Virus record (IMG/VR): IMGVR_UViG_2711768009_000004
Origin: a virus
Lineage: Duplodnaviria > Heunggongvirae > Uroviricota > Caudoviricetes
DNA: 5,248 bases
Strand: one strand, 5' to 3'
The position numbers and the translations under genes are program-made. Under the pieces are notes generated by a model. It made no database searches. It was not told the origin of the DNA and worked only from the letters and a program-made list of their open reading frames with translations. Each line of letters begins with the position of its first letter. Within the stretch, counting starts at the first letter, position 1. Below, one piece after another: positions 1,579 to 5,248 of this stretch.

Positions 1579-2073
1579 ATGGCTGGAACGGCGGGGCGTT
1601 CCGGGCGTCGCCCCAAGCCAACGGCGCGCAAGGCGCTGGCCGGAAACCCCGGCAAGCGAGCCCTGAACAAAGATGAACCTGTTTTTACGCCCATCAAAGG
1701 TGTTGAGCCACCAGAGTGGTTCGCTGAAGAAGATCTCCCTCTCGCCACGATCATGTGGCAACTGACAACCAAAGAACTCTGCGGTCAGGGCCTGCTGTGC
1801 GTGACTGACCTGGCGGTACTTGAGCGGTGGTGCGTGGCCTATGAGTTCTGGCGACGTGCCGTGAAAAATATTGCCATACAGGGCAACACCATCACCGGTG
1901 CAATGGGCGGCAGGGTCAAAAATCCGGAGCTGACCGCCAAAAAAGAACAGGAGTCCGAGATGAGCAGCACGGGGGCAATGCTCGGACTCGACCCCAGCAG
2001 CCGCCAGCGTCTGATTGGCCTGGCGGGGCAGAAGAAAGCCACTAACCCGTTTCTGAAAATTATCGAATCATGA
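1579..2073 (+). CDS. Terminase small subunit, P27 family (HK97 gp1-like), 164 aa from ATG 1579
   Basis: Seen: SD AGGAG (1566-1570) 8 nt before ATG 1579. N-terminus [30 protein letters not shown] is typical of P27-family small terminases (established). The track's start at 1570 is a GTG overlapping the SD and is less likely. Stop TGA 2071-2073 overlaps terL start (ATGA). Confidence 0.9.
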
Positions 2074-3803
2074 GCCGGAAATCTTACCCCAACGTAAATG
2101 CTGCAAATCAGTATGCCCGGGATGTCGTGCGCGGAAAGATTGTTGCCTGCCAGTTTGTGATTCAGGCCTGCCAGCGCCATCTTGATGACCTGATGGCGGA
2201 AAAAAGTAAGTCGTTTCGTTACCGCTTCGACAAGGACCTGGCTGAACGGGCCGCGAAATTTATTCAGCTGTTGCCGCACACCAAGGGGGAGTGGGCATTC
2301 AAACGGATGCCCATCACGCTGGAGCCGTGGCAGCTATTTGTGATCTGCTGTGCGTTTGGCTGGGTCAATAAAGGCACCCGGTTGCGCCGCTTCCGGGAGG
2401 TGTACACCGAAATCCCCCGTAAGAACGGCAAATCAGCAATCTCTGCCGGTGTTGCCCTGTATTGTTTTGCCTGTGATAACGAGTTTGGCGCGGAAGTGTA
2501 TTCCGGTGCCACGACAGAGAAACAGGCGTGGGAAGTCTTTCGCCCGGCGCGACTGATGTGTAAACGCACACCCATGCTGACGGAAGCGTTCGGGATTGAG
2601 GTTAACGCCTCAAACATGAACCGTCCGGAGGATGGCGCGCGGTTTGAACCGCTGATCGGCAACCCAGGTGATGGTTCATCACCCCACTGTGCCGTGGTTG
2701 ATGAATATCACGAGCATGCCACCGATGCGCTTTATACCACAATGCTTACCGGGATGGGGGCGCGACGTCAGCCACTGATGTGGGCCATCACCACCGCCGG
2801 GTACAACATTGAGGGGCCGTGCTACGACAAGCGGCGGGAAGTCATCGAGATGCTCAACGGCTCGGTGCCTAACGATGAACTGTTCGGGATCATCTATACC
2901 GTTGATGAAGGTGACGACTGGACCGGCCCGCAGGTGCTGGAAAAAGCCAATCCAAATATTGGCGTGTCGGTTTATCGCGAATTTTTGTTAAGTCAGCAGC
3001 AGCGTGCGAAAAATAACGCCCGTCTGGCAAACGTCTTTAAAACAAAACACCTCAATATCTGGGTGTCGGCGCGTTCGGCGTATTTCAACTTGGTGAGCTG
3101 GCAGAGCTGCGAGGATAAATCACTGACCCTTGAGCAGTTCGAGGGGCAGCCGTGCATTCTGGCCTTTGACCTGGCGCGTAAGCTGGATATGAACAGCATG
3201 GCGCGACTTTATACCCGCGAGATTGACGGTAAAACGCATTACTACAGTGTGGCCCCGCGTTTCTGGGTACCGTATGACACGGTGTACAGCGTCGAGAAAA
3301 ATGAAGATCGACGGACAGCCGAACGCTTTCAGAAATGGGTGGAAATGGGCGTTCTGACCGTTACCGATGGTGCGGAGGTGGATTATCGCTACATCCTCGA
3401 GGAGGCCAAAGCGGCGAACAAAATCAGCCCGGTCAGTGAGTCACCCATCGACCCCTTCGGGGCGACCGGGTTGTCACATGACCTTGCTGATGAAGACCTG
3501 AATCCCGTCACTATCGTCCAGAACTTCACCAATATGTCCGATCCGATGAAAGAGCTGGAAGCAGCGATTGAATCGGGACGTTTTCATCATGACGGCAATC
3601 CCATCATGACCTGGTGTATCGGCAACGTGGTCGGCAAAAACATGCCGGGTAACGATGATGTGGTGAAACCCGTCAAAGAGCAGGCGGAAAACAAAATCGA
3701 TGGTGCAGTTGCGCTGATTATGGCGGTTGGCAGAGCCATGCTGTACGAGAAAGAAGACACGCTGTCTGACCACATTGAGTCCTACGGGATCCGCTCGCTT
3801 TAA
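2070..3803 (+). CDS. Terminase large subunit (HK97 gp2-like), 577 aa
   Basis: Seen: Walker A-like EIPRKNGKS (nt 2409-2435); Walker B-like CAVVDEYHE (nt 2688-2714); C-terminal nuclease-type region with acidic motif ILAFDLARK. Start ATG 2070 overlaps terS stop. Size and motif order fit the HK97-type large terminase family (established). Confidence 0.95.
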
Positions 3804-3814
3804 CTGAGGTAATT

Positions 3815-3997
3815 ATGATCATGCTGATTCTCGCGCCTCTGGTGGGCGTGCTGGGTGCGCTTTTGCTGGCGTATGGTGCCTGGCTGATTTATCCCCCGGC
3901 GGGTTTTGTTGTTGCCGGGGCGCTGTGCCTGTTCTGGTCGTGGCTGGTGGCGCGATATCTCGACCGTACACGGCAGTCTGTCGGCGGAGGTAAATAG
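3815..3997 (+). CDS. Small hydrophobic protein, predicted two transmembrane segments, unknown function (60 aa)
   Basis: Seen: SD GAGG (3806-3809) 5 nt before ATG 3815 (second ATG at 3821). Product [60 protein letters not shown] has two hydrophobic stretches split by YPPAG and a basic C-tail. Stop TAG 3995-3997. No family recognised; could still be a non-coding leader. Confidence 0.5.
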
Positions 3998-5153
3998 TGT
4001 TCTTTTCGGGATTATTTCAACGAAAAAGCGATGTGCCGGTGACCACGCCAGCAGAACTGCTGATGCTATCGGGCTGTCATACGACACCTATACCGGAAAG
4101 CGGATCAGTAGCCAGCGGGCCATGCGCCTGACGGCGGTCTATTCTTGCGTCAGGGTGCTGGCAGAGTCTGTTGGTATGCTGCCCTGCAGTCTCTACAAAA
4201 TCAGCGGTACCCTGAAAACACGGGCGGTGGATGAACGACTGCATAAGTTGGTTTCGGCAAAACCTAATGGCTACATGACACCGCAGGAATTCTGGGAGCT
4301 GGTTATTGTCTGCCTGTGTCTACGGGGGAATTTTTACGCCTACAAGGTAAAGGCACTGGGAGAAGTGGTGGAGCTTCTTCCGATAGATCCGGGCTGTGTG
4401 GAACCGAAGCTGAACAGCCAGTGGCAGCCGGTTTATCAGGTGACGTTTCCGGATGGTTCCGTGGATGTGTTGACCCAGAATGAAATCTGGCATGTGCGCA
4501 CCCTGACGCTGGATGGACTTGTCGGGCTGAATCCCATTGCGTATGCGCGTGAGGCCATTTCACTGGCAGCGGCAACCGAGGAGCACGGTGCCAGGTTGTT
4601 TAGTAATGGTGCGGTGACATCCGGTGTGTTGCGTACGGAACAAAAGCTCACGCCGGATGCTTACGAGCGTCTGAAGAAAGATTTTGAGGAGTGTCACACG
4701 GGGCTTGGCAATGCTCACCGCCCGATGATTCTGGAAATGGGGCTGGACTGGAAGTCGATGGCGCTGAACGCCGAGGACAGTCAGTTCCTGGAAACCCGCA
4801 AGTTTCAGCTGGAAGAAATCTGTCGTCTGTTCCGGGTGCCGTTGCACATGGTGCAGAACACCGATCGCGCCACCTTCAACAATATCGAAGAGCTGGGGCT
4901 GGGATTTATCAACTATTCACTGGTGCCGTATCTGACCCGCATCGAACAGCGGATCAACACCGGACTGGTACGAAAAAGTAAGCAGGGCGTTTATTACGCC
5001 AAATTTAACGCCGGGGCGTTACTGCGCGGGGATATGAAGTCCCGTTTTGAAGCCTACGCCACCGGGATCAACTGGGGAATTTACTCTTCCAATGACTGCC
5101 GCGACCTGGAAGATATGAATCCGCGTCCCGGTGGTGTAATGCCGATCAGTTAA
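3997..5153 (+). CDS. Portal protein, HK97 family; apparent frameshift near 5' end (possible pseudogene or sequence error)
   Basis: Seen: long ORF to TAA 5151-5153 with conserved portal N-terminal core AMRLTAVYSCVRVLAESVGMLPCSLYK and C-terminal RDLEDMNPRPGG. The only credible initiation signal is GTG 3997 with GGAGG (3986-3990) 6 nt upstream, but it is in a different frame (positions 3n+1) that stops at TGA 4129-4131; the portal body is in frame 3n. First in-frame ATG of the body is 4122 (no SD). The track start 3906 is a TTG inside the upstream ORF. Confidence 0.85.
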
Positions 5154-5185
5154 GGATCAGTTGACCGATCCAGTGGCTGTGTAAG

Positions 5186-5220
5186 AATCCGGAAACGCTC
5201 ACTTGTTTCCGGATTTTTTT
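5186..5220 (+). terminator. Rho-independent (intrinsic) terminator
   Basis: Seen: perfect 11-bp inverted repeat aatccggaaac (5186-5196) / gtttccggatt (5205-5215) with 8-nt loop gctcactt, running into a T7 tract (5214-5220). Lies 33 nt after the portal stop. Confidence 0.75.
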
Positions 5221-5248
5221 ATGCACATTGGACAGGCTCTTGATCTGG

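Follow-up and report, generated by a model that had tools for sequence, protein, structure and literature searches.

The window, by which we mean the whole 5,248-nucleotide stretch analysed here, holds part of a prophage in which lysis genes, packaging genes and a ymfR-like gene precede a portal gene that is interrupted by an IS4 element. It is what remains of a defective Shigella sonnei prophage with an HK97-type head module, whose relatives include phiP27 and SfII. S. sonnei is a species known for the expansion of IS elements and for gene decay. The features of the portal region are collected in Table 1.

Table 1. Features of the ymfR-portal-IS4 region, in window coordinates
Feature	Position	Strand	Details
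ymfR-like gene	3815-3997	+	60-aa membrane protein from the ORF list; Shigella and E. coli records give an identical protein the name YmfR
Shine-Dalgarno GGAGG	3986-3990	+	read from the sequence; 6 nt before the portal GTG; kept in all aligned homologues
Portal GTG start codon	3997-3999	+	opens frame 3n+1
Frame 3n+1 ORF, 44 aa	3997-4131	+	translation MFFSGLFQRKSDVPVTTPAELLMLSGCHTTPIPESGSVASGPCA; TGA stop at 4129-4131
Portal codons 1-21, true N-terminus	3997-4059	+	MFFSGLFQRKSDVPVTTPAEL, frame 3n+1; lines up with the starts annotated for the portals of phiP27, SfII, ST64B and E. coli
A5 homopolymer	4023-4027	+	read from the sequence
Deletion site	4059	+	single G where the ancestor had GG; gap in one alignment column against six homologues
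Portal body	4059-5136	+	frame 3n; residues 22-380 of the ancestral 413-aa HK97-family portal; gene callers begin at ATG 4122
Out-of-frame tail of the 44-aa N-terminal fragment	4060-4131	+	LMLSGCHTTPIPESGSVASGPCA, from the translation; ends at TGA 4129-4131
IS4 left end	5137-5248	+	112 bp in the window; portal homology ends at 5136; matches E. coli features that carry the annotation "IS4-like element IS4 family transposase"
IS4 terminal inverted repeat	5137-5154	+	TAATGCCGATCAGTTAAG; left end of the element
IS4 transposase ATG	5221	+	within the IS4 left end

Several observations concern the DNA upstream of the portal gene. At 596-887 the window contains 292 Ns where complete S. sonnei genomes have 412 nt, which belong to the lysozyme gene (its 3' end) and to the Rz spanin gene (its 5' part). 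In the ORF list, 226-1002 appears as a 258-aa "ORF", an artefact in which two genes are joined across these Ns. Between the genes for the HNH endonuclease and the small terminase subunit (TerS), the sequence TGCCCGCCCC (1519-1528) is the counterpart of the 10-base cos site annotated in phiP27 (CGCCCGCCCC), from which it differs at one base. Judging from its sequence, the packaging module of HNH, cos, TerS and the large terminase subunit (TerL) looks intact even though the portal gene is dead. The terminase genes are disrupted in three of ten complete S. sonnei genomes: TerL is divided into two ORFs in L006 and reduced to a 498-aa ORF in L010 and L011, while L006 has a split TerS and L010 a shortened one. 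These breaks could be errors of long-read assembly or further strain-specific decay.

The portal gene is spread over two reading frames. The earlier note had read a GTG at 3997, with GGAGG six nucleotides upstream, as the opening of frame 3n+1 and had placed the end of that frame at a TGA; all of these coordinates were verified. Its observation that frame 3n has no credible start was likewise borne out on the sequence. Frame 3n is free of stops across 3906-5153, and the only ATG or GTG in it before the AVYSCVRV motif is ATG 4122, which is preceded by ggatcagtagccagcgggcc, a sequence in which no Shine-Dalgarno was found. The other frame-3n start codons before this motif are three TTGs at 3906-3912, within the upstream gene. 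Neither the 44-aa N-terminal fragment nor the 415-aa ORF started at a TTG returned a match in exact protein look-ups, and neither is called by gene callers.

The start codon shares a base with the gene before it, as the last G of the ymfR-like TAG stop (3995-3997) is the first base of the portal GTG. The same layout of ymfR stop and portal start is found in phiP27, SfII and E. coli A36. Read from the sequence, this overlap is compatible with translational coupling of the two genes.

A megablast of positions 3800-4400 identified this region as the TerL-YmfR-portal junction of P27-like prophages. Matches came from 1384 of 5426 complete E. coli genomes, with identities of up to 95.7%, and from the phages phiP27, SfII, SfIV, SfI and ST64B. 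The annotated portal is 413 aa long in phiP27, E. coli A36, SfII, E. coli AST240 and phage 689R6, and its start corresponds to position 3997 of the window. In all five the portal gene overlaps the stop of the gene for the 60-aa membrane protein, and the genes for the prohead protease and the major capsid protein come after it. The ST64B portal is annotated one codon further upstream. A comparison of window positions 2070-4400 with phiP27, SfII and 689R6 showed that the locus is mosaic. Around 3075-3105, in TerL, the window matches SfII and 689R6 except for a T/C difference at 3090 and phiP27 is clearly different, while in the ymfR-portal 5' region phiP27 is the closest (95.5%) and SfII reaches only about 85% identity.

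These homologues locate the frame switch precisely. When the translations of both frames were aligned to HK97-family portals, as the earlier note had proposed, frame 3n+1 matched the homologues up to ...VTTPAEL, whose last codon is CTG 4057-4059, and frame 3n matched them from ADAIGLSYDTYTGK..., whose first codon is GCT 4059-4061. Past residue 21, the 44-aa fragment showed no similarity to the homologues in the alignment. The DNA alignment with six homologues has a single gap in one column, with GAACT-GCTGATGCT in the window and GAGCTGGCGGA(G/T)GCT in the others. An ancestral CTGGCT, encoding Leu21-Ala22, has become CTGCT, and the remaining G at 4059 serves both as the last base of the Leu21 CTG in frame 3n+1 and as the first base of the Ala22 GCT in frame 3n. 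Among the megablast matches listed, every E. coli row spans 602 bases against 601 of the window, and the full-length phage rows span 602 against 601 or 570 against 569, always with one additional base. Since the homologous DNA listed is always one base longer and the gap falls in a single column, the frame split is not a chance pattern. It is caused by a one-base deletion.

The earlier note had thus correctly proposed that the loss of one nucleotide within 3997-4131 parts the true start from the portal body. The A5 run, the site that it favoured, is intact and identical in all close homologues, and the homology of frame 3n+1 runs on beyond it to 4059. Its second candidate, near 4057-4062, contains the lost G, as both the homologue alignments and a sister allele in S. 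sonnei demonstrate.

Inserting a G after 4059 restores MFFSGLFQRKSDVPVTTPAELADAIGLSYDTYTGK... (MFFSGLFQRKSDVPVTTPAELADAIGLSYDTYTGKRISSQRAMRLTAVYSCVRV...). From residue 1 on, the repaired protein is collinear with 15 diverse Enterobacterales portals as well as with those of phiP27, SfII, ST64B and E. coli. As a query it is covered over 100% of its length by more than 100 single-frame portals of approximately 406-413 aa, which come from many Enterobacterales. It scores 359.2 bits against Pfam PF04860 Phage_portal (cut-off 39.1) and 263.6 bits against NCBIfam TIGR01537 portal_HK97 (cut-off 112.05).

We considered whether a single frame could suffice, with the portal starting at ATG 4122 or at a non-canonical in-frame codon and the 3n+1 ORF being unrelated to it. 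Many S. sonnei records do annotate a 343-aa ORF from ATG 4122 as "portal protein", and the PF04860 domain begins near this codon, at about residue 47. Against this, the TIGR01537 alignment begins at residue 39, which is upstream of ATG 4122, and 101 of the 104 full-length homologues begin with MFF, the first 42 residues being conserved across Enterobacterales. AVYSCVRV begins at residue 47 of 413 in the intact homologues, in keeping with the expectation in the earlier note that this motif sits some tens of residues into the protein. In phiP27, SfII and E. coli the start is annotated at the equivalent of GTG 3997, where it overlaps the ymfR stop, and not at that of ATG 4122, which also lacks a Shine-Dalgarno. 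A genuine start at or near ATG 4122 is therefore extremely unlikely.

At its other end the portal gene is truncated. The homology to the phiP27 and E. coli portals stops at 5136, after codon 380, and the last 33 codons are lost to IS4. The element itself supplies the last five codons of the truncated portal (VMPIS, after GG) and a TAA stop at 5151-5153. Since only its left end lies in the window, we used the copy in S. sonnei genome L008 to identify the element by its 18-bp terminal inverted repeats, a length of about 1.4 kb and a DDE (IS4-family) transposase, all of which are present. In L008 the 18-bp inverted-repeat cores bound 1426 bp (7016-8441), which contain a 442-aa ORF for an Nterm_IS4/DDE_Tnp_1 transposase. 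A G+C-rich hairpin followed by a T-run (AATCCGGAAAC...GTTTCCGGATTTTTTT) lies at 5181-5219, just upstream of the transposase ATG. In sequence it looks like an intrinsic terminator, and this putative terminator would keep transcripts of the portal gene from running on into the transposase.

What follows IS4 is not the same in all S. sonnei strains. In L008 and L012 a full IS4 is followed by raiA-pheL-pheA-tyrA-aroF. In the other S. sonnei genomes among L003-L012, IS4 is cut by an IS3-family element, leaving a 374-aa transposase, and is followed by bamE-recN-nadK. These differences suggest an IS-mediated rearrangement at the junction. No head or tail genes (protease, capsid, tail) were found after IS4 in the complete S. 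sonnei genomes examined.

A functional HK97-family portal would be expected in a single uninterrupted ORF of about 400-415 aa and in the order TerL, portal, prohead protease and major capsid. The window instead has a frameshift at 4059 and IS4 at 5137, and its portal region has TerS, TerL and YmfR upstream and IS4 followed by chromosomal genes downstream. Considering that both the intact ORF and the synteny of the head module are lost, this is not a functional member of the HK97-portal family. It is a pseudogene, and its ancestor was an HK97-family portal of the phiP27/SfII group.

The two frames could in principle be joined during translation, by a programmed -1 ribosomal frameshift from the 3n+1 segment into the 3n body, which the earlier note had mentioned as a less likely option. 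Both frames are open over 3997-4131, and the A AAA AG run at 4023-4028 would permit slippage in the P site. A slip on this run would, however, exchange the conserved SDVPVTTPAEL for out-of-frame residues. There is no zero-frame X XXY YYZ heptamer in 3997-4131, and at the point where the homology switches (GAA CTG / CTG) the tRNA would be unable to re-pair in the -1 frame. The two-frame layout is also not conserved, as all homologues and the sister S. sonnei allele are read in a single frame, and the gene has lost its 3' end and its partner head genes. Programmed frameshifting is excluded for practical purposes, and we give it a vanishingly small chance of being correct.

Comparison with the same prophage in other strains, a further proposal of the earlier note, revealed two alleles in S. 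sonnei. Ten chromosome-scale S. sonnei assemblies (4.8-5.04 Mb) are identical to the window over 3700-5248 and carry the deletion. The 343-aa product from ATG 4122, which marks this majority allele, occurs in at least 1000 contigs (1695 index blocks), of which the longest contig has 5.04 Mb, and the exact repaired, IS4-truncated 385-aa protein, named "portal protein [Shigella sonnei]", in 19 contigs (31 blocks). The undeleted minority allele, with CTGGCT, was found in eight S. sonnei assemblies. Downstream of the site these have no mismatch to the window, through an identical IS4 junction. Over about 3.2 kb upstream, seven of the eight have one or two mismatches; in the eighth, an N-run gap upstream breaks the ungapped comparison. 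All seven comparable assemblies share a C at window position 3090, where the window has T, and two of them have one private SNP each. The T/C difference is synonymous (TTG or CTG, both Leu in TerL). SfII and phage 689R6 also carry C at 3090, so the T of the window is derived.

Since the GG state is linked to C at 3090, the difference at 4059 is not noise. The GG and G states represent two lineages of one locus, and the window belongs to the derived one. No deleted allele was found among the complete E. coli genomes, where the best match, at 92.7% identity, had one additional base, and an exact-pattern scan for it in a collection with one genome per GTDB species matched no record. A further difference emerged when positions 1-1400 of L019, an assembly with the undeleted allele, were compared with L017 and L003. 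Upstream of the lysis genes, L019 encodes ANT, RusA, NinH and a Q-like antiterminator, while the others encode a 187-aa ORF6N protein; the regulatory region of the prophage therefore varies among S. sonnei strains.

The two lineages also bear on the possibility, raised in the earlier note, of a sequencing error, in which case the base would have been missed in the sequencing or assembly of this one record and the real gene would have a single frame. The assembly of the window is indeed imperfect, as seen from its run of Ns among the lysis genes, and a few long-read assemblies of the locus (L006, L010 and L011) have broken terminase genes. Nevertheless, 3700-5248 is the same in ten independent complete genomes, the resulting 343-aa ORF recurs throughout the index, and the undeleted allele goes together with C at 3090 in the comparable assemblies, as expected of lineages. 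The site is moreover a GG dinucleotide and not a long homopolymer. This recurrence and the linked SNP exclude a sequencing error, and we consider it exceedingly improbable.

The best explanation, to which we assign a probability of about 97%, is that a neutral deletion removed a single base from an already dead portal gene and became fixed by descent within the dominant lineage of S. sonnei. The portal gene starts at GTG 3997, as in all relatives. IS4 would have inserted first, at 5137, taking the last 33 codons and leaving the gene dead. This order is likely by parsimony, because the sister allele has the identical IS4 junction yet retains GG, and the outgroups give the polarity of the change. 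One G would then have been lost from CTG-GCT. At that time the gene would already have been dead, since IS4 had removed its 3' end and no head or tail genes follow. A ribosome reading from the true start would now leave the portal frame at 4059 and end at TGA 4129, and the other 359 portal codons lie in the -1 frame without a start of their own; annotators resort to ATG 4122. Taken by itself, such a lesion would be predicted to inactivate the portal gene. As a secondary event it was likely selectively neutral, and the two-frame layout probably does nothing. One suggestion of the earlier note was a real inactivating mutation in a decaying prophage. The mutation is real, as it recurs across assemblies, while the inactivating step was likely the earlier IS4 insertion.

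A function for what remains of the gene is also conceivable. If expressed from ATG 4122, the doubly truncated 343-aa portal might act as a dominant negative that poisons the portal rings of incoming phiP27- or SfII-like phages. It would then be a domesticated superinfection-exclusion factor kept in a globally dominant S. sonnei lineage. The one observation in favour of this is that the ORF has been retained, and retention does not imply selection because S. sonnei is too young and clonal. We regard such a role as very unlikely and prefer the neutral deletion in a dead gene.

The loss of a base from one more S. sonnei pseudogene carries little biological weight. A literature search for this specific locus returned only general papers on Shigella IS elements and pseudogenes, one of which describes IS elements that pseudogenise Shigella genes (PMC8072062). 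Gene decay by frameshift and by IS elements is already well known in Shigella, and the finding is ordinary in this respect. It has two practical consequences. In many S. sonnei records, the 343-aa "portal protein" that begins at ATG 4122 is a pseudogene annotated with the wrong start. In addition, the lost G at 4059 and the T at 3090 that is linked to it provide a clean derived marker that separates the majority from the minority S. sonnei lineage. The portal case also shows a secondary lesion accruing in a gene that an IS element had already killed.

The closest known systems include the undeleted S. sonnei allele (P0180, 385 aa; for example CSN80531.1, GCA_900487965.1 and GCA_001253095.1). 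It shares its locus and its IS4 junction with the window, but retains CTGGCT, with its N-terminus and body in one frame, and has C at 3090, whereas the window has CTGCT and T. They also include portal L38 of the Stx2e phage phiP27 (NP_543090.1) and nearly identical portals of E. coli prophages, such as WP_240745495.1, whose DNA is 95.5-95.7% identical to the window over 3800-4400. They share with it the order HNH, TerS, TerL, YmfR-like gene and portal, the overlap of the GTG with the upstream stop, and a matching N-terminus (MFFSGLFQRKSD.PVTTPAEL). These portals are intact, with 413 aa in one frame and protease and capsid genes after them, whereas that of the window is one G short at 4059 and interrupted by IS4 after codon 380. 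The portals of the Shigella phages SfII, SfIV and SfI and the Salmonella phage ST64B have about 85-88% DNA identity and the same layout, with Ala-Asp-Ala-Ile (ADAI) after Leu21 as in the repaired window sequence. Unlike the portal of the window, they are intact genes of functional phages. A further parallel is beeE, which we take to be a portal pseudogene adjoining ymfR in the defective E. coli K-12 prophage e14. The lesion and the host presumably differ, but by description, which is the level at which we liken them, both would be portal remnants downstream of ymfR in decayed prophages.
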